A stretch of DNA of 62,199 nt, counting the filler. It is 7 parts of 7 records of this genome, joined end to end, with 100 filler letters (N's around TTAATTAATTAA, not from the genome) between each part and the next. Parts side by side here need not be neighbours in the genome. Positions count along the whole stretch, not along the records: positions 56,739 to 62,199 come from SRR2962707_2285; 6 more parts are not named here. The stretch is one strand, 5' to 3'. The notes beneath the pieces were generated by a model. That model saw only the letters and a program-made list of their open reading frames with translations, had not been told where the DNA came from and did not search any database. Shown here one piece after another: positions 19,573 to 62,199 of this stretch; the first letter of the stretch is position 1, and each line of letters starts with the position of its first letter. Position numbers and translations under genes: made by a program.

Positions 19573-19637
19573 AATATGTATTCCAAATCTATAGGTCGAG
19601 ATATTCAGACCCGGCGGCACAAGTCCACCTTTTGCGG

Positions 19638-22373: not shown

Positions 22374-22450
22374 CAGACTTTCCTTACAGGCGGGCACTTG
22401 GCATACCGCGTCTATATAAGGGCAACAAGCCACACGAAAAGGGGTGTTAT

Positions 22451-22897
22451 ATGATGCGAAGATTCGGCGCGCCGCCATTGGCTGGAAAAAACTATACAAT
22501 TCGACCCGGTGCATACGCGATTTTGCCATTGAAAAACAGGTTCTTGATGACGGCGCAAATGTCGCCCCAAGTCGATGTACAGCTGCCCGGCGGCGGTATT
22601 GATCCCGGCGAATCCCCCCTACAGACACTTCACCGAGAGGTGATGGAGGAGATCGGCTGGTCGATCGCGTACCCCCGGCGGTTGGGCGCATTCAGACGGT
22701 TTGTTTATATGCCGGAATATGATCTTTGGGCCGAAAAACTGTGCCATGTCTATGTTGCACATCCGATCCGCCAAATCGCTGATCCGATTGAGCCTGATCA
22801 CACGACAGTTGTGCTGTCTGCCGATGAATCCCTGGCCGTATTGGGCAACGACGGTGACCGGTTATTTTTACAGCAATACTGCGCTAACGCCCTGTAA
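22451..22897 (+). CDS. NUDIX hydrolase
   Basis: Nudix box LPGGGIDPGESPLQTLHREVMEEIG. Confidence 0.88.
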   Translation: MMRRFGAPPLAGKNYTIRPGAYAILPLKNRFLMTAQMSPQVDVQLPGGGIDPGESPLQTLHREVMEEIGWSIAYPRRLGAFRRFVYMPEYDLWAEKLCHVYVAHPIRQIADPIEPDHTTVVLSADESLAVLGNDGDRLFLQQYCANAL

Positions 22898-24146
22898 ATT
22901 CGAATAATATGCCGGACACATCGTCGGGAAACTCATCATGACCCGAAAACTCTGACAACTTCCACAAGATCGCCTCGAGCAAGGGGGGGCCTGACACATC
23001 GCGCAGCGAAAAGAGCATTTTTGCAAGGCCCTCTTCCTCCATCATGGTGCCGTCAGGATCGGGGCATTCGGTTACCCCATCCGACAAGACCAACAACCGG
23101 TCGCCGGGCGATAAAGTTACCTCGAATTTTTCATATTTAACCTTGGCCATCAGTCCAACAGGGAAACCGCCAGGCCCATTTTGTTCAATTTCGCCATTGC
23201 GTCGCTGTACAACGGGGTAAGGGTGCCCCGCCTGACACATCAAAACATGGCCCGACTTCAAATCAACCTCTGCCAAAAGCAGCGTAAAATAATGTTCGGT
23301 TTCCATCTCGCTCAACACCAGATCGTTTAGTTCGGAAACGACCTCTTCAGGGGAACGCATCGTATATGCCCCATCGCTATCGCGGCTTAGGGCGATATTC
23401 TGGTCAGGAACGGCGGCAGATAAATACCCAGCCAAACGCGCCGTCATAAGCGCAGAGCTGATCCCATGGCCCGAAACATCAATGCCAAAAAGCCCCAGTT
23501 TTGTATCGTTAACCGGAAAGAAACCCACAAGATCCCCGCCCACATGACCGCTGGATCGCAGCAACAATGACAGCTTTCCGCCGTCAAAATCGCGGGTACG
23601 TTCGCGCACCAGCGATTGCTGCAGTTTCTTTGCCTCGATCAAATCCTTATCCAGCAGGTCATAAACGCGCTGCAATTCATCCAATGTATGGGTAATAATC
23701 AGGTTTTTATCCGTCAGCTGTCGCTGCATTTCCAAAATACGTTCGCCTGCCGCAATCCGGGCGCGCAGCTCGTGCACATCGACCGGTTTACTAAGAAAAT
23801 CATCGGCCCCACTGTCCAAGCCCTTGGCGACTTCGGCCTTTTCACTTTTCGAGGTCAGCAAGATAAAATAGCCGTATTGCGTTTCGGATAACGCACGGAA
23901 TTCTCGGCAAAATTCAAGGCCAGACATCCCTGGCATCACCCAATCGCTAAGCACGAGATCGGGAAGCCGGTCTTTGCACTTTTCGATGGCTTCGGGTCCC
24001 GATGCGGCCTCGACCACCGAAAAGCCCCATTTTTTCAATGACGCCCCCAGAATACGGCGCTGCAACTTGCTATCGTCCACCACCATCGCAAGCTGCATGA
24101 CGCCATCGCGCTGCGGCTGTTCTGAAATTTGTGGGTTATGGTGCAT
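22884..24146 (-). CDS. Response regulator receiver fused to a PP2C/SpoIIE phosphatase
   Basis: Receiver motifs VVDDS, DWVMP and KP; SpoIIE motifs GGD, DVSGHG, QAGHP, SDGVTE and DDVS. Confidence 0.92.
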   Translation of the reverse strand: MHHNPQISEQPQRDGVMQLAMVVDDSKLQRRILGASLKKWGFSVVEAASGPEAIEKCKDRLPDLVLSDWVMPGMSGLEFCREFRALSETQYGYFILLTSKSEKAEVAKGLDSGADDFLSKPVDVHELRARIAAGERILEMQRQLTDKNLIITHTLDELQRVYDLLDKDLIEAKKLQQSLVRERTRDFDGGKLSLLLRSSGHVGGDLVGFFPVNDTKLGLFGIDVSGHGISSALMTARLAGYLSAAVPDQNIALSRDSDGAYTMRSPEEVVSELNDLVLSEMETEHYFTLLLAEVDLKSGHVLMCQAGHPYPVVQRRNGEIEQNGPGGFPVGLMAKVKYEKFEVTLSPGDRLLVLSDGVTECPDPDGTMMEEEGLAKMLFSLRDVSGPPLLEAILWKLSEFSGHDEFPDDVSGILFEFTGR

Positions 24147-24298
24147 TAAAAATCGACCAATCAGAGGTTTGAAAGCACCGCACTACCGCACAGCTGTTTA
24201 ACAGCCCATGAAACCTAAAACTTGAACAAACAATCGCCGTTGGGCCACCTCCCGTTAATCCCCATCCTTTATCGTGATAAACGAAAGGAAGCTTCACC

Positions 24299-24631
24299 AT
24301 GATCGACTGGGCACAGGTCAACACCTTGCGTGATGACGTTGGAAAAGATGACTTTGCTGAAATCATCGACATTTTTATCGATGAGGTGGAGGACGTTATT
24401 GAAAAGCTGCGCAATGTGCCGGACCTGAACACGCTGGGCGACGATTTGCATTTTCTCAAGGGCAGCGCGCTGAACCTCGGGTTCTCGGCCTTTTCTGAAC
24501 AATGCCAACTGGGCGAGACGAATTCAGCCGCGGGGCATGCCGATCAGGTCGACATTTCCGCGATTATTGCTGCCTATGATTCATCGAAAACAAAATTCAT
24601 TGCCGAAATGCCCGACGCGCTGAACCCATGA
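24299..24631 (+). CDS. Hpt (histidine phosphotransfer) protein
   Basis: LHFLKGSALNLG motif. Confidence 0.9.
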   Translation: MIDWAQVNTLRDDVGKDDFAEIIDIFIDEVEDVIEKLRNVPDLNTLGDDLHFLKGSALNLGFSAFSEQCQLGETNSAAGHADQVDISAIIAAYDSSKTKFIAEMPDALNP

Positions 24632-24632
24632 A

Positions 24633-25865
24633 TCACAGTACAAACTGGGCCAGCGTTTCGTCATTAGTAATGTCGGTATAGGTAAATCCCGCGTCTTTCA
24701 GCTGGGACAGGAATGGGCCAAAACTGTCCGGGCTGCGGGTTTCGATCCCTATCAGAACCGAGCCAAAGTTACGGGCCGATTTCTTGAGGTATTCAAACCG
24801 GCAGATATCATCATCAGGCCCAAGGATGTTCAAGAACTCCTTTAGCGCACCGGGGCGCTGCGGCATGCGCAGGATGAAGTACTTTTTCACGCCAGAATAA
24901 CGCTGGGCACGTTCCTTAACCTCGGGCAGGCGTTCGAAATCAAAATTGCCACCAGACGCGACGCAAACAACGGTTTTGCCTTTGATTTGATCCGCGACAT
25001 CGCCCAGCGCCTCGATCGACAGGGCACCGGCTGGTTCCAGCACGATCCCTTCGACATTCAGCATTTCGATGATGGTCACACAAATGCGGTCTTCTGCCAG
25101 ATTTATCACGTTTGCCGGATCGACCCCCTTGAGGCGGTCAAAATTCCGCTGCCCGATCTTGGCCACGGCGGCACCGTCTACAAAGCTGTTGATCGGCGAA
25201 ATATCGACAGGCTCCCCTTTTGCCAACGCGCCGGCCAGACTTGGCGCGCCTTTGGGTTCGACAAAGGTGTAATCGCAGGATTTCCCGAAATAGCTGTAAA
25301 TGCCCGACGATAACCCGCCGCCCCCAACAGGCAAAATCACGCGATCGGGGACGCGGCCTAACTGCTGCTCAATCTCGACCGCAACAGACGCCTGGCCTTC
25401 GATCACATCATCATCATCGAAAGGCGACAGAAAATGCGCCCCTTCGCTGGCACAAAAATCCTGCGCCGCCGACAGGGTTTTGTCGAAATAGTCGCCCACC
25501 AGCCGCACCTCGATCTGGGCACCGCCAAACATCTTGGTTTTCTGAATTTTCTGCTGCGGCGTGGTCACCGGCATGAAAATCACACCTTTTACCCCGAAAT
25601 AGCTGCACATAAACGCGACGCCCTGCGCGTGATTGCCCGCACTTGCACACACAAACAGCGATTGCTCCGGGATAACCTTGCGCATCGCATTGAACGCACC
25701 GCGCAGCTTGTAGGACCGAACGGGGCTCAGGTCTTCACGCTTGAGCCATATGTCGGCCTCAAACTTTTCTGACAGATGTTCGTTGCGCATCAGCGGTGTC
25801 GGGGGGAACACATCGCGCATCGCTTTGGTCGCATTTTGCGCCAAGATCTTGAAATTATCGGTCAT
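24633..25865 (-). CDS. ilvA: Threonine ammonia-lyase (biosynthetic, short form)
   Basis: REDLSPVRSYKLRGA, ASAGNHAQG, VGGGGL and EPAGAL motifs, with ACT-like PQRPGAL. GAGG RBS precedes ATG 25865. Confidence 0.94.
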   Translation of the reverse strand: MTDNFKILAQNATKAMRDVFPPTPLMRNEHLSEKFEADIWLKREDLSPVRSYKLRGAFNAMRKVIPEQSLFVCASAGNHAQGVAFMCSYFGVKGVIFMPVTTPQQKIQKTKMFGGAQIEVRLVGDYFDKTLSAAQDFCASEGAHFLSPFDDDDVIEGQASVAVEIEQQLGRVPDRVILPVGGGGLSSGIYSYFGKSCDYTFVEPKGAPSLAGALAKGEPVDISPINSFVDGAAVAKIGQRNFDRLKGVDPANVINLAEDRICVTIIEMLNVEGIVLEPAGALSIEALGDVADQIKGKTVVCVASGGNFDFERLPEVKERAQRYSGVKKYFILRMPQRPGALKEFLNILGPDDDICRFEYLKKSARNFGSVLIGIETRSPDSFGPFLSQLKDAGFTYTDITNDETLAQFVL

Positions 25866-25989
25866 CAACGGCCTCATAAGGTGGATATCCTTCGATACGA
25901 CCCCAAACCGGGGCGGTCAACGCAGCCTTCAATCTTGCTCACGCCTGTAAAACCCGATACCTCGCGATGCAAACCGCAAAGGAAATAAC

Positions 25990-27210
25990 ATGTCCGCGCC
26001 CAAAAAAGTTGTGCTCGCCTATTCCGGTGGGCTTGATACGTCGATCATCCTGAAATGGCTGCAAACCGAATACGGTTGCGAGGTGGTGACATTTACCGCC
26101 GATCTTGGCCAAGGCGAAGAGCTGGAGCCAGCCCGCGCCAAAGCCGAAATGATGGGTGCCTCCGAGATTTATATCGAAGATGTTCGCGAAGAATTCGTGC
26201 GCGATTTCGTTTTCCCGATGTTCCGCGCCAACGCGTTGTACGAAGGGCTGTATCTGCTGGGCACATCCATCGCGCGGCCGCTGATTTCCAAGCGTCTGGT
26301 TGAAATTGCTGCCGAAACCGGTGCCGATGCTGTCGCCCACGGTGCGACCGGCAAGGGCAACGATCAGGTTCGTTTCGAACTGGCCGCCTATGCGTTGAAC
26401 CCCGACATCAAAGTGATCGCACCTTGGCGCGAATGGGATCTGACCAGCCGCACCAAACTGCTTGAATTCGCTGAGAAAAACCAAATTCCCGTTGCCAAAG
26501 ACAAACGTGGCGAAGCACCGTTCAGCGTTGATGCGAACCTGCTGCACACGTCATCCGAAGGCAAAGTGCTGGAAGACCCCGCAATTGATGCGCCAGAATA
26601 CGTCTATCAGCGCACCGTCGCACCGGAAGACGCGCCAGACACGCCCGAATACGTCGAGATCGGATTTGAAGCAGGCGACGCCGTCAGCATCAATGGCGAA
26701 GCAATGTCCCCCGCCACGATCCTGACCAAGCTGAACGAACTGGGCGGCAAACACGGCTGTGGCCGTCTTGATCTGGTCGAAGGTCGTTTTGTCGGGATGA
26801 AATCGCGCGGGATTTACGAGACCCCCGGCGGCACATTGCTGCTTGAAGCACACCGCGGAATCGAATCGATCACGCTGGACCGTGGCGCTATGCACCTGAA
26901 AGACGAATTGATGCCGCGCTATGCCGAACTGATCTATAACGGTTTCTGGTTCAGCCCCGAACGCACCATGTTGCAGGCCGCAATCGACGCGTCACAAACC
27001 CACGTCACCGGCACCGTGCGCCTGAAACTGTACAAGGGTCACGTGCGCACTGTTGGCCGTTGGTCTGATCATTCGCTCTATTCCGAAGCGCATGTGACGT
27101 TCGAAGACGACGCTGGCGCCTATGATCAAAAAGACGCCGCCGGCTTTATTCAGCTGAATGCCCTGCGTCTGAAGCTGCTGGCAGCCCGTGACAAACGCCT
27201 GAAAAGCTAA
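25990..27210 (+). CDS. argG: Argininosuccinate synthase
   Basis: [24 protein letters not shown] and [11 protein letters not shown] motifs. Confidence 0.97.
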
Positions 27211-27223
27211 GCGATAAAGTTAG

Positions 27224-27266
27224 AAAAAGGGCCCGGACAGAATACTATCTGTTCGGGCCCTTTTTT
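27224..27266. terminator. Bidirectional rho-independent terminator
   Basis: AAAAAGGGCCCGGACAG-aatactat-CTGTTCGGGCCCTTTTTT between convergent genes. Confidence 0.88.
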
Positions 27267-27298
27267 GTGGGCGATCAAGGTTACAGATCGGGCAAACA

Positions 27299-27991
27299 TT
27301 ACGTAACACGTTGATTATAAAGTATCTTATAGTGAGGAAGCGCTTCCTCAAGAAGCTGCTTTTCATCCCCAGTCAGCATCGGCAGCGGCCCCTCGGCACC
27401 CGCGAACCCCGTGCTTTGATGCACCGCGCCATACCAATGCGACGCCCAAACGCCATCCTCACTCCGGGTGCCGGCCGGCCATGACAACATCGCGGGATCA
27501 AAAGGCAGATCGATCGCCCTGCACAGCTTGCGCAACATGCCCTCGGGGTCGGCGCGAATATCGGCGGAATCGATAACCAAGCCGCCAATCTGATCATAAA
27601 GCGCGGTCTGCTGGCCAAATCCAATATCCGCAAAACTGGGTGCCTCGCGTTTCGCGGCATAGCTGGCAATCACGCGGGCCGGATGCCGGATCAGGTGAAT
27701 ATTCACGCAATCCTTGGCCCAGTCCATCGGAAACCCGTCCAGCATGTGATGGGACATATGTTTCATATAGATATGCGGGCTTCCCGGCTGTTGGCACAGC
27801 GCGCTCACCTTTTGCGGATCGGCTTCGTGCGCTGCCAGAATTTCGGCGCGCATCGGGTGATCCTCGCCTGTGGTGGCAAGATAGGCCGCATAAAACGGTT
27901 CATCCATTACCGAAAAGTCAGCGCGGTTGCCAAAGCTGTACATCATCGCCGTGCTTAGATTACGCGGGCCGGACCACATCGCGATACGCAT
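27299..27991 (-). CDS. Sulfotransferase-like (P-loop) protein of unknown function, coupled to an aminotransferase
   Basis: MRIAMWSGPRNLSTAMMYSF, DEPFY, KHM, LIRHP and GVWASHWY motifs. ATG overlaps the upstream TGA (TGATG). Confidence 0.8.
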   Translation of the reverse strand: MRIAMWSGPRNLSTAMMYSFGNRADFSVMDEPFYAAYLATTGEDHPMRAEILAAHEADPQKVSALCQQPGSPHIYMKHMSHHMLDGFPMDWAKDCVNIHLIRHPARVIASYAAKREAPSFADIGFGQQTALYDQIGGLVIDSADIRADPEGMLRKLCRAIDLPFDPAMLSWPAGTRSEDGVWASHWYGAVHQSTGFAGAEGPLPMLTGDEKQLLEEALPHYKILYNQRVT

Positions 27992-28899
27992 CAGGCGCAC
28001 TCCTGCTTGATCAAATCCTTATAAAGATCACGCAACCGCTGGGTCATCGGCCCCATTTCGCCCGTGCCAATTTGACGCCCATCAATGGATGCCACGGGCG
28101 TCTGCGCACCGAATGTACCGGTCAAAAACGCCTCGTCCGCGCCATACGTATCAACAAGTGAGAAATTGCGCTCAAAAACCGGAATGTCATTGGCGCGGCA
28201 CAAATCGATCACCTTTTGCCGCGTGATACCGTTCATACAATAATCCCCCGTGCTGGTCCAAACCGCCCCCTTGCGCACGATGAAAAAGTTACAGGCGTTG
28301 GTCGTGTTCACAAAACCATTGATATCCAGCATCAGCGCCTCGTCTGCGCCCGCTTTTTCAGCAGCGATACAGGCCAGAATGCAATTCAGTTTGGAATGGC
28401 TGTTCAGTTTGGGGTCTTGGGTCATCGGCAAACCACGCAGGTGGGGAACCGTCGCCAACCTGATTGGGCGCGGGATACTGGGGCGTGAATGCTCCATAAT
28501 AATCGTGATCGTCGGGCCGGATTGCGACAGTGACGGATGCTGGAAGGGGCGCGTTTTGACCCCGCGCGTGATCATCAAACGCGCATGGGCATCTGTGGTC
28601 ATCCCGTTGGATTTTTGCGTCTCTAACAGGGCGGAAATCAATGCTTCACGGGTCATTCCGATGTCGATATCAATGGCCTTTGCGGCCTCGAACAGACGAT
28701 CAAAATGTTCATCCATAAAGGCCCAGCGCCCATCGTACAGGCGCAGCCCTTCCCAGATGCCATCGCCCAACATGAACCCGCTGTCATACACGCTGACCAC
28801 CGCTTGCGCCTTGGGAACGATCTCGCCGTTCAGGTAAATCAGTATCTCATTGTTGCGCGCATCTTCTTCAGCTTGGTGTGTGGTCACGTGATCTTGCAT
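27991..28899 (-). CDS. Aminotransferase class IV (branched-chain/D-amino-acid aminotransferase-like)
   Basis: VSVYDSGFMLGDGIWEG, GITRQ and ADEAFLTGT motifs. Start at MQDHVTT with GGGGA RBS. Confidence 0.88.
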   Translation of the reverse strand: MQDHVTTHQAEEDARNNEILIYLNGEIVPKAQAVVSVYDSGFMLGDGIWEGLRLYDGRWAFMDEHFDRLFEAAKAIDIDIGMTREALISALLETQKSNGMTTDAHARLMITRGVKTRPFQHPSLSQSGPTITIIMEHSRPSIPRPIRLATVPHLRGLPMTQDPKLNSHSKLNCILACIAAEKAGADEALMLDINGFVNTTNACNFFIVRKGAVWTSTGDYCMNGITRQKVIDLCRANDIPVFERNFSLVDTYGADEAFLTGTFGAQTPVASIDGRQIGTGEMGPMTQRLRDLYKDLIKQECA

Positions 28900-29046
28900 C
28901 GTTAATCCCCTTTTCACCGCGACGCTAAGAACTTCGCCAGCCCGCGCCAAGCCTGAAATTGAATTCAACAGCGCGTGAGATGGCCAAGCTGTGTGTTGCG
29001 CAGCGCCGTGAACCAGGTCACCGTTTCCCAAAAGAGGAGACCCCCA

Positions 29047-29712
29047 ATGCGCATGTTAGCCAATTTCAAGCTAATCGCCCTGTCTGTCACCATTGGTTTG
29101 GGCCTAGTCTCCCAAAGCACCAGCGCAAAAGCCGCCGGAACCGAGACGCTTTTGGTCGCTGGCGGGTGCTTTTGGTGCGTCGAATCCGATTTCGAGAGCG
29201 TCAAAGGCGTGAAAGACGTCGTTTCCGGTTTTGCCGGTGGTTCGGTCAAGAACCCCACGTACAAGCAGGTCGTCGCAGGCGGCACCGGGCATTATGAAGC
29301 GGCGCAGATCCAATATGATCCGGCAGTGGTCAGCGCCGATCAACTGCTTGCTATGTTTTTCCGGTCGGTCGACCCGACAGATGCTGGCGGTCAGTTTTGT
29401 GATCGCGGCGACAGTTATCGCACAGCTATTTTTGCCGATGGGCCTGTCGAAAAAGCAGCCGCGCAGAAAGCCAAAGCAGATGCACAAGCCGCGTTGGGAA
29501 AAACAGTGGTGACACCGATTCTGGGTAAAGCCGCGTTTTATCCCGCCGACGATTATCACCAAAACTACTATAAAAGCAGCGAGCGGCTGGCCTTTAGCAG
29601 TGTCGGTCTGGGCGTCAAGAAATCCGAGGCCTACAAACGCTATCGCGACAGATGCGGCCGGGATCAGCGCGTGGAAAAATTATGGGGCGATGCGGCACCA
29701 TTTACGCATTAG
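29047..29712 (+). CDS. msrA: Periplasmic peptide methionine sulfoxide reductase A
   Basis: Signal peptide, AGGCFWCVE, GQFCDRG and YHQNY motifs; AGGAGA RBS. Confidence 0.92.
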   Translation: MRMLANFKLIALSVTIGLGLVSQSTSAKAAGTETLLVAGGCFWCVESDFESVKGVKDVVSGFAGGSVKNPTYKQVVAGGTGHYEAAQIQYDPAVVSADQLLAMFFRSVDPTDAGGQFCDRGDSYRTAIFADGPVEKAAAQKAKADAQAALGKTVVTPILGKAAFYPADDYHQNYYKSSERLAFSSVGLGVKKSEAYKRYRDRCGRDQRVEKLWGDAAPFTH

Positions 29713-30589
29713 GGTCATCGTCAAAATTGTGATCCTGAATTTCCTTTAGGTCCGGGATCACATCTGCCGTTCCCTGCCGCATCACCATCAATGCGGCGGC
29801 TTGCATGGCCAGGGTGATTGCGTCTGTCATGGTAAGGTGTCGATCAAGCGCCGCGATCAAATAGCCCGTAAAGGTGTCGCCGGCACCTGTCGTGTCGACC
29901 GCCTTGACCGCATAGGCAGGGAAAAACTGTTCGCTTTTCCCTGTGTTAGAGACCCATTTACAGCCGTTTTCACCCAAGGTGACAATGATATCATCGATAG
30001 GAAGCTGATCCAGCGGTTGCCCCAGCGCCTGAACCAGATCCGCCGCTTCGCCCTCGTTCAAGACCAGCAAATCGACATCATCCATCACGTCAGCGACGAC
30101 TTCTGCCTCGAACGGGGCGGCAGCATAAGCCACGCGAAGCCCTAGCGTTTTCGCGGTCCGGGCTGCAAATTCCTGACCCAGGGTTTCATTCTGCATCAGC
30201 AGGAAATCACCGGGCGACGCTTCGGACAGGGCTGCGCCGATGATCCTATCGTCAACCTCGTAGTTTGCCCCGGAAAGTAGAACGATATTATTCTCGCCAT
30301 CGTCGGCGACACAAATATTAGCGTGCCCCGTCGGCACGTTGATCATGTGTATATGCTGGGTCTCAACCCCATATTCCAACAGACGTTCAACCGCCCATTT
30401 CCCGTCAGGCCCAACCGCGCCGATATGCATGACACGGGTGCCAGCACGGGCGGCGGCGACCGACATATTGGCGCCCTTGCCACCTAAACCTTGGTTAAAA
30501 CCCTCGGCTGCGATCGTTTCGCCGGGTTTCGGCAAATGACGCAGATAATAGAAATTATCCGCGTTGATCGAGCCGAGGTTCCAGATCAT
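29702..30589 (-). CDS. rbsK: Ribokinase (PfkB family)
   Basis: GSINAD, GGKGAN, QNE and VDTTGAGDTF motifs. Confidence 0.85.
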   Translation of the reverse strand: MIWNLGSINADNFYYLRHLPKPGETIAAEGFNQGLGGKGANMSVAAARAGTRVMHIGAVGPDGKWAVERLLEYGVETQHIHMINVPTGHANICVADDGENNIVLLSGANYEVDDRIIGAALSEASPGDFLLMQNETLGQEFAARTAKTLGLRVAYAAAPFEAEVVADVMDDVDLLVLNEGEAADLVQALGQPLDQLPIDDIIVTLGENGCKWVSNTGKSEQFFPAYAVKAVDTTGAGDTFTGYLIAALDRHLTMTDAITLAMQAAALMVMRQGTADVIPDLKEIQDHNFDDDPNA

Positions 30590-32572
30590 TCGCCGACCTT
30601 ACACGCCGCCAAGATTGCCATGTTCAGAATATCATTTGCCGTCGATGTTGTTGAACAAATCTGGATCGATTTATCCAAGCCCGTCAAAATCGGGCCAATC
30701 ACCGTTGCACCCGCCATTTCCTGCATCAATTTAACCGAGATGCTTGCCGAATGCCGCGCCGGAACAACCAAAATATTCGCGGGCCCCGTCAACCGCGAGA
30801 ACGGATAGTTCTTTTGGCTTTCGGCATTCAGCGCGACATCAACGGTCATCTCGCCTTCGTATTCAAAGTTAACGCCGCGGGTATCAAGAACGTTTGGCGC
30901 GCGTTGCATTTTCTCGGCACGCTCGGAAATTGGATAGCCGAATGTGGAAAAGCTGACAAAAGCCACTCGGGGTTCAAGCCCCAGATGCCGCGCAACTTTG
31001 GCGCCGCTTTCAGCAATGTTCGCCAGATCATTTTCGTCGGGCCATTCATGCACCAATGTATCGCCGATAAACACGATCCGGCCTTTGTGCAGAACGGCGG
31101 TGATGCCGACCGCACCATGTTGGGCGTCAGCGTTGAAAACGTGGTTAATACGTTCGAGCACGTGGGCTGATTTGCGTGTCGCACCTGTTACCAGACCATC
31201 ACCATGCCCGTGCGCCAACATCAAAGCTGCAAAAACATGGCGGTCGCGCGCGGCAAGACGATGAATGTCTTTGCTGTCAAAACCCCGACGTTTCAGGCGG
31301 TCATATAGAAACGTTTTATATGCTTCCAAGTGGGTTGTATTGGCCGCATTCACGACCTCCAACTCGCGATAGGCATCTTCCAAACCGGCGGCGGCCAGTT
31401 TGGCTTTTACGTCATCGGCACGCCCGACAACCAACGCCTTGCCCAGACCGGACCGCTGATAGGTCACGGCCGCGCGCAGCACCTTGGGGTCGTCGCCTTC
31501 GGCAAAGATCATGCGCGCTTGGTTCGCACGGGCACGGGCGTTAATCCCGCGCAAGATGTTCGCCGTCGGGTCCATGCGCGACTTCAGGCTCAGCTCGTAG
31601 GCGTCCATGTCGATGATCGGGCGCCGCGCCACGCCAGTGTGCATACCGGCGCTGGCCACGGCGGGCGGAATGCGGTGGATCAAACGGGGGTCAAACGGCG
31701 TAGGGATGATGTAATCACGGCCAAAGCTCAGGTTTTTACCATAGGCCAACGCGACCTCGTCCGGCACATCCTCGCGCGCTAGGTTTGCCAACGCATGGGC
31801 GCAGGCGATCTTCATTTCGTCATTGATGGCGCGGGCGTGAATGTCCAACGCACCACGGAACAGATAGGGAAAGCCCAGCACGTTGTTCACTTGGTTCGGA
31901 TAGTCACTGCGACCCGTTGCAACGATGGCGTCAGGGCGAACTTCGTGTGCTTCTTCGGGTGTGATTTCGGGATCGGGGTTCGCCATGGCAAAGATCACCG
32001 GATTATCCGCCATGCTGGCAACCATCGCCGGGGTCACAGCCCCCTTGACCGACACACCCAAGAACACATCGGCGTCTTTCATCGCCTCTTCCAGGCTGCG
32101 CAGTTCAGTGGCGGCAGCATGGGCCGATTTCCACTGGTTCATACCTTCGGTACGGCCCTGATAAATAACGCCTTTGGTGTCACACATGATGCAGTTGTTA
32201 TGCTGTGCGCCCATCGCTTTCAGCAGCTCAAGACAGGCGATCCCGGCAGCCCCGGCACCGTTCAACACAATGCGCACGTCTTCGATTTTCTTGCCGGAAA
32301 TATGCAGCGCGTTCAGCAGACCGGCCGCACAAATCACCGCCGTCCCGTGCTGGTCATCGTGAAAGACGGGAATATCCATCTCTTCTTTCAGACGCTGTTC
32401 AATGATGAAACATTCCGGCGCCTTGATATCCTCAAGGTTAATGCCGCCAAAGGTCGGGCCCATCAATTTAACCGCATTGATGAACGCTTCGGGGTCTTCA
32501 GTATCCAGCTCGATATCGATCGAATTCACATCCGCGAACCGTTTGAACAGAACCGCCTTGCCTTCCATCACC
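30586..32572 (-). CDS. maeB: NADP-dependent malic enzyme with PTA domain, 5' end truncated
   Basis: INLEDI, FHDDQHGTA, GAGAAG and TGRSDYPNQVNN motifs, followed by a phosphotransacetylase-like domain (FAEG, EGEM). Confidence 0.95.
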
Positions 32573-32672
32573 NNNNNNNNNNNNNNNNNNNNNNNNNNNN
32601 NNNNNNNNNNNNNNNNTTAATTAATTAANNNNNNNNNNNNNNNNNNNNNNNNNNNNNNNNNNNNNNNNNNNN
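32573..32672. other. Artificial contig spacer
   Basis: 44 N + TTAATTAATTAA + 44 N. Confidence 0.97.
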
Positions 32673-39072: not shown

Positions 39073-39172
39073 NNNNNNNNNNNNNNNNNNNNNNNNNNNN
39101 NNNNNNNNNNNNNNNNTTAATTAATTAANNNNNNNNNNNNNNNNNNNNNNNNNNNNNNNNNNNNNNNNNNNN
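39073..39172. other. Artificial contig spacer
   Basis: 44 N + TTAATTAATTAA + 44 N. Confidence 0.97.
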
Positions 39173-44514: not shown

Positions 44515-44614
44515 NNNNNNNNNNNNNNNNNNNNNNNNNNNNNNNNNNNNNNNNNNNNTTAATTAATTAANNNNNNNNNNNNNNNNNNNNNNNNNNNNNN
44601 NNNNNNNNNNNNNN
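44515..44614. other. Artificial contig spacer
   Basis: 44 N + TTAATTAATTAA + 44 N. Confidence 0.97.
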
Positions 44615-44745
44615 AACGAACCCGGGGGCGATTTCGAATTATTCGAAATCCAGAACTTGAAAAACGCCAGCTGACTGCTGGTTGGTCCCTTGGCAGGTGT
44701 AGCTTCAACGAGAAAAGAAAGAAAAAGAAACGAGCAGCTGAGGCG

Positions 44746-47700
44746 ATGAGCAGCTCCGCTGCTGCTGCTGCTGCTGCTCCTGACGCGGGGCCATCGCACC
44801 TGAGGCTGCTTTACAAAACTGGCCCACAGACCGACGAAAGTTGCCTCGTCGCCTCTGCTGGAGACATTCTCGTCCGTCTCTCTACAACAGGAGAATGGCA
44901 TCTTGTGATGCACATCAAAGACCAAGATAAGGAAAATGCGCCAACAGGGTACGTGCCCTGCACTTACGTCGAGGAATACCACCTGACGGATGTGGACTCC
45001 TCCGCGGATGATCGGTCCGTCCACAGCGCCGCTTCTCGAGAGGACGACTCCACGTCCGAGGCAGAATCCGTCGACGTGTCAGCCTCGACCAGAGACCTCA
45101 AGTCTGCAGCACAGCCATCAACGGCAGCTGCTGGTGTTGACAGTGCAAACTGTGCTCGAGAAGAAAACACGGCAGCAACGTCGACTGCAATGACAATAGT
45201 GAAACAAGAGAAACCCAAAGAAAAGCTCAAAAAAGTAAGGAAGCGGCGTCAACAGCCAAAGGGTGCGACCAAGCAAGAGCACGCTGCTGCAGTGAAGCTA
45301 GCCGTTTTAGCGGCATCGAAGAATCGCCAAAAAAATCAATCAGAACTCTCGCTTGCTACGGCCCAGCTCGCTTCTGCAGTCGCCAAGGCCCGTGAGCGAC
45401 GCACAATTGTATCGTATTTCGGGCTTCAAACCGCCTTACGAGCCGCGGTGGTTGCTGGAATGGCAGCGTCTGCCCCTGAAGCTGCTGCAGCCAGGGCGCT
45501 CGTGCATGAGCTTCAGCATGGCAACGCTGACCTGACTGGTGGCCAGCGTTACTGCATTGATTTTACGAATGTGCTCTCAGACACTGGAACTACGTTGGTG
45601 TATGCAGCCACAGATCAGCGCCTTGACGAACCTGTAGCTGTGAAATTTTGCCCGCGAACGGACGGTTTCAAACGAGAAGCTCATCGCTTTGTTGCAAAGC
45701 AATTGGCGGCCAGATTAAAGCGCAAGCGGAGGAAAACTGTCGCATATGCGGACGGTGCCGTGAACATTCGAGAGCTTTTGGACGCTAAAACGCTCGGGCC
45801 ATTTCCAAAAGCACTGCGGCGTGAAATGTTGTTGCAGCCGCCAGACCGCTGCCGACTTTCTCAGGCAATCGTGATGGACTTTGCTGCAGGCGGGAGCCTA
45901 CATAATTTGCTTGCCTCAACGACTTTTGCTGGACGGCAATTCGGGCGTAGCATGAACATTTTTTTTTCTGTTGCACAAGCGCTTTACAAGCTTCACGCCG
46001 CGCGTCGGGTACACGGGCAGGTCAACCCCAGAAAGGTTCTTCGAATTCGTCAAGACCACCTTGGTGGCGGCAACAGTGACGCTAATTTGCAGCTCGAAAC
46101 ACGCAAAAGCTTGTCATTGCGAGACTCTGTCACAGAGAGCAATTCAATTGATAGTATCAAGGAGCACAAGCACGATCTCGACAGTACAACTGGTTACGAT
46201 GATGGGGCCGATCACCGATTTGTGTTCAAGCTCTGTGGACTGAGTGCACAGACAAAGTTCGGCCATCCATTCCTGCACCCGCGAGCTGCTATTCAAACCT
46301 ACGACGCACCGGAGGTTGTCCGTGTGCTGTCATCGACATGTCAGACGAACCAAGTTCATGCGTCTGAAACACTCTGCGCACATCCAAGTCAGGATATCTG
46401 GGCTCTCGGATGTCTTCTGTTTCAACTTGGAACTGGACGCCCACTCTTCCGCCCAACAGGATTCGGATCCAATGACTTGGAGGACGAGGCTGACATCATG
46501 AGATTGTGCACCTGGACGAAACTTGAACAATCAGCTGCTTCCTTGTTTTTTCGTGGCAAGTTGGGGGTCACAGGTGACATAGATCGTCAAGAATGCAGCG
46601 AGTCTGATCGACAGGAAGTGTTGCGCTTAGCGCGAGCATGCTTGCAGGGGAGTGCGAGCGCTCGCCCAAACATCCGAGCCATTCTTCTGTCACCGTTGGC
46701 AGCCCGATTTCTGCCAGCATCTTTTGTGGATTTCATTGCCATTCAGCCCTTTGACGCTCCTGGCCTTGTGAGTGCACCCGCCAGCTGCAACACCCACTTT
46801 TTCATTTCGAGGCCGAGCTCCGCTTGTCGTTTACAGGTGAACAGCTTGGGGATTGCCCTTGAAGGGCTTGGCTGCTCTGTGTGGAAGCACACTGCGAACC
46901 AAGACTCCCATGTCAGTACAGCGATCGTGGACATAGGGCTGCGACCGAAGCAAGCTCGTGTTGGAGTTGCTGAGTCCGACATTTTTGTCCTATTCCTCCC
47001 CGCCGGAGCCGCTCACCGTGGGCTTTCTCGGGCCGCCTGTGTGTCGGAAGTGTTGTGGGCGTACGTAGCTCCATGCGTTGTGACTACCAGTGTCAAATTG
47101 TTGTTGGTGTGACCTTGCCTTACACTGTATCGTCTCTTGTCACTGTTGATGTAGATACGTCCTCAACAAAGCTACAGTTATTGTTGCCGAAAACCGTCAG
47201 GCCTTTATCGATTTCGAGCTCGACTTTTATGAGCGAGTCACACAACTGGACCCCGCAGAATTAGTATTGCAGATAGCACCGGCTCACAGCGCGGATCCGA
47301 GTGCTGGCAGTGAGGAAGGACCTGTCGCGCTGGCGAAGCGCGTCTTGCGTTTCTTTAAGGAGCGCACTGAAAGCTGTCCACCACTGTTTGCTGGGAAGTG
47401 GCCTGTTCAAATTGTTGCAGAGAATGTGCTGCGCAGGGCTTCGTCGCTTGCTGGTTGGGGCTTCTTACCGGTCCAACTGTCCAGTTTGAGCGCGCAAGCG
47501 ACTCCAGACGAATCACTGCCGGGACAGACTGAAATATCGATCAGTTTCCTGCATGATGGATCGTCTGCGGCCGATACAGCCTTGAAGGCTGTCGAGCGCC
47601 TCGCGAGTGACTTACACAGTATCATCGAAACCAACGATGAAGGCCCTGAAAACTCAACTGATCATGTCACGGTTGGTGCAGTAGATGTGTCAGTCACGCC

Positions 47701-50688: not shown

Positions 50689-50788
50689 NNNNNNNNNNNN
50701 NNNNNNNNNNNNNNNNNNNNNNNNNNNNNNNNTTAATTAATTAANNNNNNNNNNNNNNNNNNNNNNNNNNNNNNNNNNNNNNNNNNNN
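50689..50788. other. Artificial contig spacer
   Basis: 44 N + TTAATTAATTAA + 44 N. Confidence 0.97.
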
Positions 50789-56638: not shown

Positions 56639-56738
56639 NNNNNNNNNNNNNNNNNNNNNNNNNNNNNNNNNNNNNNNNNNNNTTAATTAATTAANNNNNN
56701 NNNNNNNNNNNNNNNNNNNNNNNNNNNNNNNNNNNNNN
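56639..56738. other. Artificial contig spacer
   Basis: 44 N + TTAATTAATTAA + 44 N. Confidence 0.97.
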
Positions 56739-56760
56739 GGGGGGGGGGGGGGGGGGGGGG

Positions 56761-59700
56761 GGGCACCGCCGCCTTCTCCAGCCGTCGCAGAAACTCCTCC
56801 ACCGGCTGCAAACGTACATGAACAACCTACCGCTGGCAACGCAGGCGTGGGTGGTTTACGAAATCGTGGGCATGTGCACCGGCTTTCAATGGATTAAAGA
56901 GAACGGGGATTTTCGGCAAGTGCAGTGCGCTTGTGACTCGTGCGGGACGGCGGAAATCGAGCACCCGTTTGAATGGGCGGCGGGGTGCCGAGGTTTCGAC
57001 CCGGATACAGATCGCTCCGAGGCTACAGTGGCAGCGGAAGCTCGGGCGGACGCTGTTGTGCAGCAAAAAGAAGTCCCTGGGGGAGGTCATGTGCACGCCT
57101 TGCCAGTTAAACCAGTCCATGCAGAGACTGCTCACCAACTCCAAGAGCCAAGTCCTGATTCAACGTCGCTCCCGAACCCGAATGCGCCCCCTATTCCCCA
57201 TCGTCCGCCACGTCGGCATTTGCTGTGCTTGAAGTGTGTGCTTGAGCACATTTCAGATCCTGAGCGGTGTGAACAGTGGTTGTGCCCCGTGTGCATTCGT
57301 GATTACCCTGAAAGTGTTGAAGCTGAGGATCCATGGGTGCGTTGAAGCGCGTCAAAGTACACTGACGCTGTACTGTCTTCGATATGCCACACAGCACTCC
57401 CTGCATCGAGAGCTGCCTGACGGTCAGACGTTTATTTCTCGTTTTGCAGGCTGTAACCACTGCGCCCATAAGCAAAGCAGAGAGCCTAGCTCGATTTATA
57501 TTGCTTGATCCAAAGGCTCCATCGAAATGCGGTGCGTCTGTGCCGTTGGCTCTGCCTCGACATCGCCAATTTTGCCCTCAATCCCTATTGTTCAGGCCGC
57601 GTGGTTCAATGTCACATTGCATGTGTTTTCACGGGAAAGGTCAACCACGTCAATCGTCCACAGAAAATGGAGTGGACCAAAAGCAAAAAAAGAAGAAGAA
57701 AATAGTGCATGATGGTCAAAGACGCAAATTACAGAAGCAACAGAAGCAGAAGCTTCGACGCGAGATGGAAGCAGCAAAGCGGCTAAGGCGTGAAATCGCA
57801 GATGGGGTGCCCTCTGGTCCTTCTGGCTCCGCAGTGGCTGAAGTTCTTGACAATGCCAGTTCTGCAACTAGTTCGTGCATGACTATCGAACAAGCAGTAG
57901 CCGCGGTGTCGCCAGAGCTCGTCGAACGGATCAAGGCAGCAGGAAATCGCGTTCGCGAGCTGAAGTCAGCAAAAGAAGACTTTCAACCTGCGTTGAAAGA
58001 ATTGCTAGCAGCAAAGGCTGCTTTCAAGCAAGCGACCGGTGTTGACTATGTCCCACCTGGCTACAAACCGCAGCGAAAGGTAAGCTTCGTGTATGCGTGC
58101 GCTCCACGTGTGGTGTGGTGTCCTGCAATCATTTGAAGGCCGTGTTTGGGTTGCTGAGTTCTTGAAACATCCTTATTGAAAGTGCACTGGTCGGTTACTT
58201 GGCAGGCTCGAACGAAGAAAAAGAGGCAGGCAGCGCTGAAGCAAGCTGTGGCAGACTTCAAAGAGCAAGTCAATGCTCTAGACAATAAGAATACATTGTC
58301 TTCAAGCCTTCAATCCAACAGCGGCCACATCCCAAAAGCTTGCACTCCAACGGATAGTACGCAAACATTAGCGCAGAGCAGCGAAGTACCGATCGGCGAT
58401 GCCCATGCAACGGAAACTACACCAAGCAATGCTCAAGCTGGGCCCAAGTCTGCTGAAGACAGGTGGGCCACTCTGCGCAAGATGCTTCCCGCAGGTATTG
58501 AGGAAAGGCTGAAGGCACTCTCCAAAGGGTCTGCCGATCACCCTGACAAGCTCGTGGTCTTCCGGCCGCCGCCGCATGCAGCGGACCGAGATCAACGACG
58601 TCAACTTCATATCCTAATCAAAGATCTATTCCCAAAGCTGCACACAGATACCCACGTTGAGCGCCCAAGCCAACACAATTCTGCACCTGCGAATTCTGGA
58701 ACACAGCCCACAGCAGAAGTGTGCCACTTTATTCGAGTTTGGCACGGAGACATTCTTGGTGACTCAACTGCAACCGCGACAGCAACCAACGCTGCTGTCC
58801 AAGCATCACTGGGCACAGCCGCAGCAGCAAGAGGAGAAGCTGGCGCGCAGAATGCCAAACTTACGCGTCGACAACGCCGGGGATGGCGTGGCGATGCGGT
58901 GCTGCCACTTCCAGCTGGAAATAGTCTCCTCTGTGGCACGGACCAAGGTAGGCCGCGTTGGTTTCAAGACGTGGTGGGGAGGCTGGCACTGGAGACGTTC
59001 TGCCTATTTGTACGCGAAGCTATCGTTTTCAGAGCTTGTTGTATTTGCTGGCGCTGTGTTGAAGGCCGTCGGATGGAACTTTTCTTTGAAGCCATCGAAG
59101 CTGGGCAGCACAGCCGTGTGTATCATCTGGTGCAGGCAGGTGTCAACTTGGACCAACAGAATGAGTACGCTTCACCAATGGTCTTGTCGCCCCGCCTTGC
59201 TCCGATCTTGATTTTTTGTTGTTGATAGAATTGTGGCTTGATTGCCTGCAGATATGGCCACACAGCTGTTTTTTTGGCAGCATGGTATGGCTACGATGCA
59301 ATCCGCAAAACATTGCAGGTTTGCGCAGCCGTACTTGTCTGTGCTCTCACTGCTGCGTTTCCATCGATCGCTATTTTTACTTGGCAGAGCAATGACTGAT
59401 CAATCACCTTGCACTGCAGGCTGCTGGCGCCGATGAGTCCATAGCTGCCAACGATGGCACAACCGTTGCACAGGTTGCAATGCTAAGAAATCGAAGTGGC
59501 ATTGCGCCTGAGCGCTTGGTAACGTCGCTCTTGACATCGTTGGAAGCTTCATCATCGAGAGGCACGTTGCTGGATCTTATTCCACTGGAAAACCAGGCAA
59601 AACCAGAGATTTGCGCAATAACAAAAGCACAGGAAACCAACAGCCAAACAGAACCTGTTTCTTTGGGCGTCAAGGAGGAGGAAGACAAGGAGGAAGTGCA

Positions 59701-60597
59701 GGTCCACGTTGGTGCTGGCCAGTCATTTGTAATTGACGATGCTTTTGACCCTGCCTTTTTGGCCAAAATTGATGCCATGCGACAAACGTTGCCTTTCGCG
59801 CCGGTACGTTGCATTTGTTACACTTTGCTCCGCGTCCCTTATCTATCGGATCAGAAAAGTCATGCAAGCTTGGATCAGTTGGACTTGCCTGCTTTGTCGT
59901 TCATGTTCAATGTCAAGGAGACGAAAAAGTCACACTCGCTTCGCCGGTATTATTGTGATGTCGATGGATCTGTGTCGTTGCAAATTCGAGCCGTCTTGAG
60001 AGCGCATGGGCTCAATCTTTCGCCATTGTCCAAAATGCGTTTCTTAGAGTACACATCCGCAAACCAAGTAAATCTATGATTTCAGTGCCACGGTGCGATC
60101 GGAGTTGGGCAGTCTTAATTTGTTTTGCTTGTTGTCTTCGAAGGATTTGCCGCCCCACGTCGACTTGTCGAGGACGACACAATTGGGTGTGACATCAACG
60201 CACACTTTCATTCTTTACCTCACTAATTGTGCGGATGGAGGTGAGACATCCCTGCTTACCCACGTCTCACCCCAGAGCTCGCCGGAGGACCACCTGTATG
60301 ATGTGAAACCTGTGGCTGGTGCGTTCGGTGACCACTCGCAAGGAGATTTCTTGTTTTCGTATATTGGTCGATGTGTGCATGTTTGCATTTAATGTGTTGA
60401 GGTGGTGCTTGACGCTCGTGTATCTTGTTGCTTGTTCTTTTTTTTCTTCGTTAGGCCGGTTGCTCTTATTTCCCCATATGTGTCCGCACGAGGGGCGCAT
60501 GGTGGAAACACTCCCTAAAATTTTGCTTCGAGGCGAGCTATTGGATGTATCAGCCAGCGAGGAGGCGGAAAGAAAGTTCGCTGAAGTTGGGTATTGA
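56761..60597 (+). CDS. RING-like + WHEP + R3H-like + ankyrin + 2OG-Fe(II) oxygenase protein, spliced, possibly 5' partial
   Basis: Phase-compatible GT-AG introns at 57337-57449, 58080-58205, 58948-59064, 59165-59251, 59319-59419, 59804-59917, 60068-60143 and 60319-60454. Motifs GNRVRELKS..LLAAK..TGVDY, NEYGHTAVFLAAW, PHVD..YLT...GGET..HEG. Confidence 0.78.
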
Positions 60598-60808
60598 CAG
60601 GACGCTCGATTGCCCTGTCCCAACACCTATCCAGCGAGCATTCCACGCACTCACGCAAAGTATTGCACAGGAAAGCGAAAGAATAAATAAAAAATAAATA
60701 TCTAGACAACCAAACCGTAACACTCTCAGCCGACAAAGTGGGCTTCACATCACAACCTCGCTCCGGCTGTCCCAAAGTGCAAAAGCCTTGATTGCACATT
60801 GGCCGTGG

Positions 60809-62199
60809 CTACCGAACTGTCTTAGTGGATGTGTGGCCGAGAAACTCGCGCTGCAGCTGTCCAATCACATCGACAATACGTCGTGCTCGGTGTGAGACAT
60901 TCAACTCGGCCGTACTGGAAGGGCCATCAGACACTTCTGTCGTGCGTCGTCCATTGCGATGGGGGTCCTGTTGACCACAAAGGCGTTTCAGAACACGGCT
61001 GTCTTTCATTTGTGTCAACGCAAGCAATACTCGATTCAGCTGGATGGCTTTCCGAGTTGCCTCCTCCAAGTCGTCATCTTTTTGCCCGGCACCGCCATCA
61101 TCGTCGTCATCTGACGAATCGTAAGCATGCGCATGTTGGGACGGCGATGGACCTAAAGACGCGTTGTCTGGAACTGCGGATGAGAAATGCTCGGTTGCCC
61201 ATGGGAGCACGCATTTTGTGAAAAGATCCAAGGCATGAAGCGCCGCAAGAGCATACGACTCGTAGCGGCTCCCCAACAGAATTGACACAAGTGGGAGCAA
61301 ACCGCGCACAAGCTCAAGCGGAGTTCCTGCGATTCGAACAACGCCCACAAGCAACACAACAACGGGCGCATTGGTCAAAACAACACATGCACAATCGACT
61401 GTTACCGCACAAACCCTCAACATCAAACGAACCTTCGAAGTCCTCGAGCGCCCGGACATTCAAGGAACGAAGAAAATCTGCTGTCACAGAGGCATCTTGG
61501 TTCGCCTGCAGATACGAAAGAATTGCTTCAACATCACCAGCAGCCCAAAACTTCCTGAGCAGCTGCAGTTTCTTTACCCTTGCTTCCAGGACAGCTTGCA
61601 CCGTGTTGTGTGACTGTGCAAATTCGGATCCAGTGAAAAAGTCACTGGCAGCTGCTGTGGTCGCCACATCTGTTGCCGATACACTACTTCCAACGGGTTT
61701 AACCCCTTTATTGTTGGGTGCCAGCAAAATCATTGTTTGGGCGAGCTCATCCTCATACGGGGAATTCGTAACAGATGCGGTGTTGGCTGTACCACCCGAA
61801 TCAGCGTTGCCAGCATCGCAATGGAGGCTGGCATCAGGCGCCATTTCCGAAGTATCGTTGAAGAAGCGAATTGCACCATCCTCCGCCCCAGCTGCAGTGG
61901 CGCCATTTTCAGTAGTCGCTCCAAGCTTCGTCGACCCGCCCAAAGCCCTTGGGCTGCGCGGAGCTACAATGGTTTGATCGTTGTTTCCGAGTTCGATTGG
62001 CTCTGGCTCCGACTCCAGCCCACCATCATCAAAGTGACGTTCAATGATGCAGCTTGCTGAGGGGCGTGGCGCTACCACCGTCGCCTCCAAAGCTGGCGAG
62101 TTTGCAGATGCACCAGCCGGTCCAGCGTCGGCATTGGAGTTTACAATGGACGAAGCAGCAGCAGTTGCTGCAGTTGTTGTTGTTGTTGTTGCTGCTGCT
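60809..62199 (-). CDS. Katanin p80 (KATNB1-like) C-terminal con80 domain, 5' partial
   Basis: HNTVQAVLEARVKKLQLLRKFWAAGD..DASVTADFL, intron 61432-61327, then LELVRGLLPLVSILLGSRYESY. The frame is open to the window end. Confidence 0.8.

Follow-up and report, generated by a model that had tools for sequence, protein, structure and literature searches.

The stretch of DNA analyzed here (the window; 62,199 bases) consists of seven contigs strung together and is not one molecule. Its last contig, positions 56739-62199, contains no N and carries a gene of ten exons whose product joins a RING-like finger, a WHEP-TRS domain, a probable R3H-like domain, two ankyrin repeats, and a 2-oxoglutarate (2OG)-Fe(II) oxygenase. 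The WHEP and R3H-like modules are both inserted in the linker between the RING and the ankyrin repeats. What is unusual at this locus is a well-conserved nonsynthetase WHEP within an intact hydroxylase, together with a RING-type finger and an R3H-like fold, while the RING-ankyrin-oxygenase core is already in the databases.

Gene structure and splicing

Splicing was examined with the contigs of a public sequencing run (X1), which is only guessed to be RNA; the contigs were taken as evidence of splicing and not of expression level. Of the words sampled from the stretch, 71% occur in this run. The X1 contigs were aligned to positions 56790-60900, with the coordinates of the joints set after stated cut shifts, and showed nine skips, all bounded by GT..AG (Table 1). 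The initial annotation of this DNA had proposed eight introns, one fewer than we found. Its view that all of the domains are joined in compatible phases held: joined from the first ATG (56818), the ten exons give 2802 nucleotides (nt) or 933 codons with no internal stop, the sole stop lying at 60595-60597. It had also named, as a result that would refute it, transcripts that separate the WHEP/R3H part from the ankyrin-oxygenase part. A 2473-nt X1 contig running from 56830 through exon 8 instead unites exons 1 to 8 and thus places the finger, the WHEP and R3H-like modules, and the ankyrin repeats on one molecule with the first half of the oxygenase. A 419-nt contig connects exons 9 and 10 and reaches 60698. 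The family oxygenase profile match is unbroken over the joint of exons 8 and 9, which backs this joint. The X1 depth in intron bins was 16 to 27, compared with 73.5, and since it is not zero, unspliced sequence is also present in run X1. The gene is real, spliced, and of protist type.

The reading frame is open right from the contig start, and positions 172-228 of a hidden Markov model (HMM) of the family N terminus align from 18 codons upstream of the ATG, with a score of 14.6 bits including the upstream stretch and 5.7 bits without it. The contig edge therefore cuts off the 5' part of the gene. HMM positions 1-171 had no counterpart on the gene's contig or elsewhere in the window in a six-frame search with the family profile, in which only this locus matched.

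Ankyrin repeats and oxygenase

The C-terminal part of the spliced model matched the family oxygenase HMM at 215.6 bits (E = 4.6e-68). On exon 9 alone, PF13640 scored 15.4 bits against a cut-off of 27, because the domain is spread over four exons; the homologues P0003 and P0006 are above this cut-off (38.5 and 33.3 bits). Among 122 family members, 57 oxygenase columns are conserved at 85% or more. The exon pieces cover 56 of these and are identical in 52, and the uncovered column is a codon split by an intron, which reads Gly after splicing. The HxD pair (H833 and D835) and the distal iron-binding H898 occupy family-invariant columns, and K908 and R912, at +10 and +14 from the distal His, are invariant in all 52 long members. 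The latter two residues probably bind the C5 carboxylate of 2OG. By these residues (H833, D835, H898, K908, and R912), the Fe(II)/2OG site is intact. The intact HxD (60156-60164) and the distal His (60487-60489) of the initial annotation were recovered, as was its Lys ten residues later, which lies at 60517-60519.

In collagen-type and algal prolyl 4-hydroxylases (P4Hs), 2OG is bound by a Lys ten residues past the distal His, and PF13640 (2OG-FeII_Oxy_3) is a family of prolyl-hydroxylase type. The P4H-type Lys tips the reading toward a protein prolyl hydroxylase, and the active site looks like that of a protein P4H rather than that of an RNA oxygenase.

The ankyrin stretch is 33 to 39% identical to family members exactly where those carry Pfam Ank, Ank_2, or Ank_4, which bears out the two repeats annotated earlier. 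Pfam scans of single exons gave no ankyrin match because introns 5 and 6 split the repeats. A structural model of the family (P0003, 127 alignment rows) had a predicted local distance difference test score (pLDDT) of 93 and a predicted template modeling score (pTM) of 0.90. At this confidence, the ankyrin repeats and the oxygenase are predicted to form one rigid unit. The best Foldseek matches of the model were P4Hs, with the algal enzyme Cr-P4H in complex with a peptide substrate (3gze) at 3.5e-9, followed by chlorovirus vCPH and Pseudomonas P4H, with PHD-type enzymes lower. The fold class of the oxygenase is certain from the model. Sequence searches of the PDB found no oxygenase (best E values of 0.5 for exon 9, 0.11 for exon 7, and 0.32 for P0001), and when the PDB was searched with a profile of alignment A1, ankyrin proteins crowded out other matches.

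The RING-ankyrin-oxygenase family

A query with exon 9 returned three proteins (P0001 to P0003), one of which, P0002 (768 amino acids [aa]), carries ankyrin repeats and PF13640. Residues 200-768 of P0002 in turn matched 164 proteins at an E value of ≤0.001 among 8000 scored candidates. Family lengths range from 235 to 1231 aa, with a median of 664.5. Sources and domain content were taken from the 120 matches listed of the 164, using a precomputed Pfam column. The named sources among the matches listed are Aphanomyces (oomycetes), several diatoms, Spumella, Symbiodinium, Effrenium, and the chytrid Terramyces. PF13640 was present in 116 of 120 matches listed, an ankyrin family in 119, and a RanBP2 finger in 3; neither PF00458 (WHEP) nor PF01424 (R3H) occurred in any of the 120. 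In addition, the 52 members of at least 685 aa were scanned anew with Pfam. Ank_2 and PF13640 (at an E value of ≤0.001) were found in all 52, a RanBP2 finger in 4, and PseudoU_synth_1 in 1, with no WHEP or R3H match in these longest members. Two of nine members scanned, P0065 and P0090, are above Pfam RING cut-offs.

The spliced model aligns with the family over aa 580-916 at 33 to 39% identity (best blastp match, P0006 at 2e-56). By these alignments, the locus belongs to a conserved and widespread protist family of RING-ankyrin-2OG oxygenases. The initial annotation did not recognize the combination of domains. Its core proves to be a conserved database family, and the WHEP and R3H-like insert is what sets this gene apart. 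The database names of family members are uninformative ("RING-type domain-containing protein" in UniRef and "ASB2" in Symbiodinium). A literature search that left subscription journals and supplements outside its scope found no paper on the architecture or on a WHEP domain in an oxygenase. No close orthologue of the gene was found in the databases searched.

In some family members, among them P0034 and P0037 (both from Symbiodinium), P0062, and P0099, a RanBP2-type zinc finger lies between the RING and the ankyrin repeats. In P0088, an 818-aa EukProt protein from a Trinity transcript, a PUS1/TruA-like region stands in place of the RING, ahead of the ankyrin-oxygenase part. This region matched PF01416 at 23.3 bits and, in two segments that keep their order, human PUS1 with an E value of 0.0015; a Glu is aligned where the RTDKG motif has its catalytic Asp. 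P0088 may represent a true fusion, or its transcript may be chimeric.

The WHEP domain

WHEP domains are regarded as a hallmark of eukaryotic aminoacyl-tRNA synthetases. In this gene, PF00458 matched at 46.9 bits (cut-off, 32.5; E = 2.7e-12) over profile positions 1-50 of 53, corresponding to residues 157-203 of the piece starting at 57450. The domain had been placed at about 57918-58056 from the sequence, and the match at 57918-58058 gives that placement HMM support above the Pfam cut-off. At the 15 columns conserved in at least 80% of 140 WHEP proteins, which hold the conserved residues of the helix-turn-helix (G, R, L, K, K...L, L, K...K, T, G, P), 13 residues are identical; the other two have L in place of V and A in place of L. 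Lys/Arg-rich stretches lie on either side. From the profile match and these columns, we consider this a genuine WHEP-TRS domain.

A full HMMER pass with exon 3 over 1.84 billion representatives gave 141 matches. The top match, P0123 (100% identity), is an unspliced open reading frame (ORF) of the same DNA, and the pass found nothing else closely related to the exon 3 region. The nearest WHEP relatives are multi-WHEP proteins at 41 to 45% identity. Among further matches scanned, 10 of 10 are multi-WHEP proteins and 7 of 10 also have GluRS or ProRS domains. A WHEP-TRS match was present in 137 of 140 exon 3 relatives, with synthetase domains as the main companions among the 25 families shown of 36. 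The family oxygenase profile, at an E value of ≤1, was absent from all 141 nearest WHEP proteins. By these searches, the combination of WHEP and oxygenase appears to stand alone within the proteins searched. A 2014 study (PMC4072531) states that no WHEP had been reported in any nonsynthetase protein.

Single members of the 140 WHEP proteins match Nicastrin, Hpt, or LeuRS domains, which may be further noncanonical WHEP contexts or gene-model fusions. P0123 (175 aa) is an ORF call of the protein library that extends into both flanking introns, and it appears that a gene caller of prokaryotic type was used on this contig.

The R3H-like domain

The single-sequence AlphaFold model of aa 425-545 shows, in order, two helices, a strand, a helix, a strand, a disordered loop, and a last strand. 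The elements (strand 39-42, helix 46-64, strand 68-75, and strand 96-103) come from a single-sequence model with a pLDDT of 68.9, and the loop of about 20 residues separates the last two strands. The motif R-x3-H (R478-R-Q-L-H482) lies inside the helix of model residues 51-64. In an exhaustive VIA-align search, in which the usual best background Z score is 7 to 8, the first rank was taken by residues 163-235 of human PUS7 (5kkp; Z, 8.4; root mean square deviation, 1.8; 62 residues aligned) and the second by yeast PUS7 (Z, 6.3). Entries entitled R3H stood at ranks 3, 4, 14, and 19 of the top 19 (Z, 5.8, 5.2, 4.6, and 4.3), including PARN R3H (1ug8; Z, 5.8) and Smubp-2 R3H (2lrr; Z, 5.2), with KhpB/EloR at rank 8. 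The paper on the human PUS7 structure (PMC8599909) describes exactly these residues, 163-235, as an R3H-like insertion positioned to contact tRNA. The sole profile match of the R3H-like piece is to PUS7L_N (PF23943), so that a subthreshold profile match and an independent fold match agree on the same PUS7 domain. On this model, an R3H-like fold is probably present.

Searches with exon 4 (247 aa) gave no match at an E value of ≤0.001 among 5996 candidates, with longer proteins searched. The best E value of the R3H-like piece in a PDB sequence search was 1.3, and its best score in the ESM Atlas, 0.77, was under the useful range.

The RING-like finger

Two segments of the protein, aa 2-57 and aa 131-223, align to the family N-terminal HMM in the order seen in the family. 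HMM positions 172-228 and 226-316 are matched in order on one target, though weakly (14.6 and 9.5 bits). In the alignment to the family RING profile, the finger keeps eight ligands in C3HC4 order (C39, C42, C57, H134, C137, C140, C156, and C159), with a Pro/Ala-rich insertion between C57 and H134. The possibility that the insertion is an unremoved intron was rejected, as the contig that is spliced at other joints is continuous over 56830-57335. By eye, moreover, no acceptor would place C57 beside H134.

Neighboring sequences

The window is a mixed assembly that includes bacterial contigs, and the gene's contig is its eukaryotic part. Six identical spacers separate the seven contigs, and apparent linkage across them is therefore not real. 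The contig at 1-16682 has a G+C content of 31 to 36% and dense plus-strand ORFs with bacterial outer-membrane genes; it looks bacterial (Bacteroidota-like). The contig at 16783-32572 (G+C content, 55%; dense minus-strand ORFs) is probably of bacterial origin. On another contig, an 849-codon open frame at 44563-47112 contains a protein kinase domain (37.6 bits).

On the gene's own contig, a convergent neighbor on the minus strand (60715-62199) carries a katanin p80 con80 domain (PF13925; 41.5 bits). This domain is split over two ORFs, indicating that the neighbor has introns, and the end of the neighbor is covered by a 1379-nt contig of run X1. The contig opens with a run of 26 G's, which may be a sequencing artifact or a homopolymer that broke the assembly; the truncation of the gene is put down to this run. 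Rfam and tRNA scans of the window gave no match.

Table 1. Features of the gene and of the other contigs in the window
Feature	Position	Strand	Remarks
In-frame open stretch upstream of ATG	56764-56817	+	Aligns to family N-terminal profile
Exon 1	56818-57336	+	aa 1-173; RING-like finger, ligands at 56932-57294
Pro/Ala-rich insertion, 76 residues	56989-57216	+	aa 58-133, C57 to H134; retained in spliced contig
Intron 1	57337-57449	+	X1 contigs
Exon 2	57450-57531	+	aa 174-201; family-conserved post-RING motif, S-L-x-x-F...L-P type
Intron 2	57532-57639	+	X1 contigs
Exon 3	57640-58079	+	aa 201-347; Lys/Arg-rich stretch, then WHEP domain
WHEP-TRS domain	57918-58058	+	aa 294-340; Pfam PF00458
Intron 3	58080-58205	+	X1 contigs
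Exon 4	58206-58947	+	aa 348-595; basic stretch, low-complexity linkers, R3H-like domain
Probable R3H-like alpha/beta domain	58452-58745	+	aa 430-527; fold model, VIA-align, PUS7L_N below cut-off
R3H-like peptide	58581-58649	+	Contains R-x3-H
R-x3-H, R478-R-Q-L-H482	58596-58610	+	Inside helix of model residues 51-64
Intron 4	58948-59064	+	X1 contigs
Exon 5	59065-59164	+	Ankyrin repeats
Two ankyrin repeats	59065-59518	+	aa ~597-683; exons 5, 6, and start of 7; family alignment
Intron 5	59165-59251	+	X1 contigs
Exon 6	59252-59318	+	Ankyrin repeats
Intron 6	59319-59419	+	X1 contigs
Exon 7	59420-59803	+	aa 651-778; ankyrin end, acidic linker, first oxygenase strands
2OG-Fe(II) oxygenase, PF13640 type	59624-60546	+	aa 719-917; exons 7 to 10
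Intron 7	59804-59917	+	X1 contigs
Exon 8	59918-60067	+	Oxygenase
Intron 8	60068-60143	+	X1 contigs
Exon 9	60144-60318	+	Oxygenase
Iron-binding HxD, H833-V-D835	60156-60164	+	Family-invariant columns
Intron 9	60319-60454	+	X1 contigs
Exon 10	60455-60597	+	Oxygenase
Distal iron-binding His, H898	60487-60489	+	Family-invariant column
K908 (60517-60519) and R912	60517-60531	+	+10 and +14 from distal His; invariant in 52/52 long members
Stop codon and 3' untranslated region	60595-60698	+	To end of transcript contig
Six identical spacers, N44-TTAATTAATTAA-N44	16683-16782, 32573-32672, 39073-39172, 44515-44614, 50689-50788, 56639-56738		Between contigs
Run of 26 G	56739-56764		Contig start, directly after N44-TTAATTAATTAA-N44 spacer; assembly edge, outside gene
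Phosphate-selective porin O/P	1301-2482		Contig 1-16682
SusC-like TonB-dependent receptor with CarboxypepD_reg domain	7875-11033		Contig 1-16682
ABC transporter with membrane domain	17737-19641	-	Contig 16783-32572

Proposed function and alternative explanations

We propose, with roughly even confidence, that the gene encodes a P4H-like protein hydroxylase, possibly also a ubiquitin ligase, that is tethered to RNA or to the translation machinery. The oxygenase would hydroxylate a protein side chain, most likely that of proline. The ankyrin repeats, which pack rigidly on the catalytic domain in the family model, would present the substrate. Provided that the RING can still fold with a loop of 76 residues inside it, it would recruit an E2, and hydroxylation and ubiquitination would thus be coupled within a single polypeptide. 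In this lineage, the WHEP and R3H-like domains, together with the Lys/Arg-rich stretches, would tether the enzyme to RNA or ribonucleoprotein. Candidates for docking are tRNA, synthetase complexes, and the ribosome, and the action would be directed to translation-associated proteins. The initial annotation had suggested tRNA, the ribosome, or translation factors as what the enzyme would modify. The RanBP2 fingers and the PUS1-like region of P0088 lend weak side support to an RNA-linked role.

Several observations limit or weigh against this proposal. The finding comes from one truncated gene in a mixed assembly, and run X1 may share its sample with the window. At the joint of exons 8 and 9, the shorter side in the X1 contig is only 29 nt. 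WHEP domains also serve protein-protein contacts, for example in synthetase complexes, and RNA tethering is therefore not the sole reading of this module. As to the R3H-like segment of the initial annotation, the fold match to the PUS7 insertion and the R-x3-H motif stand in its favor, while Pfam R3H (PF01424) gave no match at an E value of ≤10 on the 77-residue core and no row at an E value of ≤1 in the scan of exon pieces. The PUS7L_N match is below the cut-off (20.3 bits against 27; E = 6.4e-4) and covers profile positions 42-66 of 80. The model on which the fold comparison is based has a pLDDT of 68.9 and a pTM of 0.58, Foldseek found no match for it at an E value of ≤0.001, and the Z score of 8.4 for PUS7 is close to the usual background best. 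The Cys/His finger has likewise kept only part of its status as a RING. Its eight ligands and its family homology agree with that assignment, but RING domains follow a spacing rule of C3-x(1-3)-H4, which the 76 residues between C3 and H4 break. No Pfam RING cut-off was reached, the best match being zf-C3HC4_4 at 17.8 bits against 30 (E = 0.0037), to the second half alone. To judge from its sequence, the RING of this gene may be inactive. Finally, a VIA-align comparison of the oxygenase ended in a tie between OsALKBH1 (Z, 16.1), OGFOD1 (15.8), Cr-P4H (15.7), a Trichoplax PHD (15.0), and PHD2 (14.9), and the fold alone therefore leaves the substrate class unfixed.

It is possible, though on our estimate somewhat unlikely, that the protein is a family-typical hydroxylase/ligase in which the WHEP domain and the R3H-like insert are protein-contact pieces, spacers, or neutral accretion in a long disordered linker, with no link to RNA or translation. 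The linker already differs in length and content from one family member to the next. The searches found no relative for the exon 4 region and none that is close for the exon 3 region, leaving conservation of the insert unsupported. The missing HMM support for R3H and the protein contacts that WHEP domains mediate in synthetase complexes fit this view as well. It accounts less well for a WHEP domain that scores above its Pfam cut-off and keeps 13 of 15 conserved columns, for the Lys/Arg-rich stretches that flank it, and for a second inserted fold that matches nucleic-acid-binding R3H domains. The RanBP2 fingers or PUS1-like region elsewhere in the family also speak against it, since they point to repeated recruitment of RNA modules.

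A nucleic-acid-directed oxygenase, which, like AlkB, ALKBH8, or TYW5, would oxidize a base or ribose in tRNA or another RNA and bind its substrate through the WHEP and R3H-like domains, is distinctly improbable. The best VIA-align Z score does belong to an AlkB homologue (OsALKBH1, 16.1; Escherichia coli AlkB, 14.2), two modules of RNA-binding type lie within the same chain, and the relative P0088 is fused to a PUS1-like region. However, the Z scores of AlkB-type and prolyl-hydroxylase-type enzymes differ by less than 1 and are tied, the top-ranked Foldseek matches are mostly P4Hs, and family members are above the cut-off of PF13640, a family of prolyl-hydroxylase type. The invariant Lys at +10 is also the arrangement of P4Hs and not the arginine pair of AlkB, and most family members have no recognizable RNA-binding module.

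An artifact (a chimeric assembly, a pseudogene, or wrongly joined genes) might be suspected from the patchwork of seven contigs with bacterial ones among them, the poly-G run at the contig start, the interrupted RING, and the possible common sample of run X1 and the assembly, but it is largely refuted and very improbable, as all parts lie on a single contig with no N, nine canonical introns are removed in contigs linking exons 1 to 8 and 9 to 10, the joined frame of 933 codons has no internal stop, and 52 of the 56 covered conserved oxygenase columns are retained.

The broader idea, that this protein hydroxylase module has been wired repeatedly to the RNA machinery and here forms a single-chain hydroxylase-ligase docked on tRNA, synthetase, or ribosome complexes, we regard as improbable; it draws on the WHEP and PUS7-type R3H-like insert of this gene, the PUS1-like region of P0088, and the RanBP2 fingers of dinoflagellate members. 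If it is right, oxygen and 2OG levels would be linked directly to the turnover of translation factors, and the WHEP of this gene would be among the few functional ones outside aminoacyl-tRNA synthetases. A functional insert would give a handle on the role of a large unstudied family in oomycetes, diatoms, and dinoflagellates and would suggest a direct path from oxygen/2OG sensing to translation control. A nonfunctional one would be a further example of domain accretion in a disordered linker.

Comparison with known systems

PHD2-VHL and the Skp1 prolyl hydroxylase PhyA with SCF are oxygen-sensing systems in which a functional link joins an oxygenase of prolyl-hydroxylase type to ubiquitin ligation; the fold matches of the family model include PHD2 (Z, 14.9) and the Dictyostelium PHD (Z, 14.4). 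In those systems, hydroxylase and ligase are separate proteins. In contrast, the two would share one chain here, where the coupling is inferred and the RING is possibly inactive.

The double-stranded beta-helix fold is shared with P4Hs (Cr-P4H-1, 2jig/3gze; PBCV-1 vCPH, 5c5t; human C-P4H-II, 7zsc), which match the family model with Foldseek E values of 3.5e-9 to 1e-7 and a VIA-align Z score of 15.7 for 2jij. The HxD...H triad is also shared, as is the Lys ten residues past the distal His. P4Hs differ in that identity in the structural alignments is only 14 to 19%. No ankyrin, RING, or WHEP domain is known in P4Hs with solved structures.

The WHEP relatives in the linker of the Glu-Pro tRNA synthetase occur in multiple copies, whereas the WHEP of this gene is single and lies in a nonsynthetase. 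The R3H-like insertion of PUS7 and the R3H domains of PARN and Smubp-2 resemble the piece found here in its modeled fold and in the R-x3-H motif; this gene's piece differs from them in having no PF01424 match.

The closest likeness is to the RING-ankyrin-2OG-FeII_Oxy_3 family, for example, Aphanomyces astaci DYB25_000485 (P0006), in which RING, post-RING motif, basic linker, two ankyrin repeats, and oxygenase follow one another as they do here. This gene differs from the family by the 76-residue insertion in its RING and by about 170 N-terminal profile positions that lie off the contig. Among the members examined, only this gene has WHEP-TRS and R3H-like domains in its linker.

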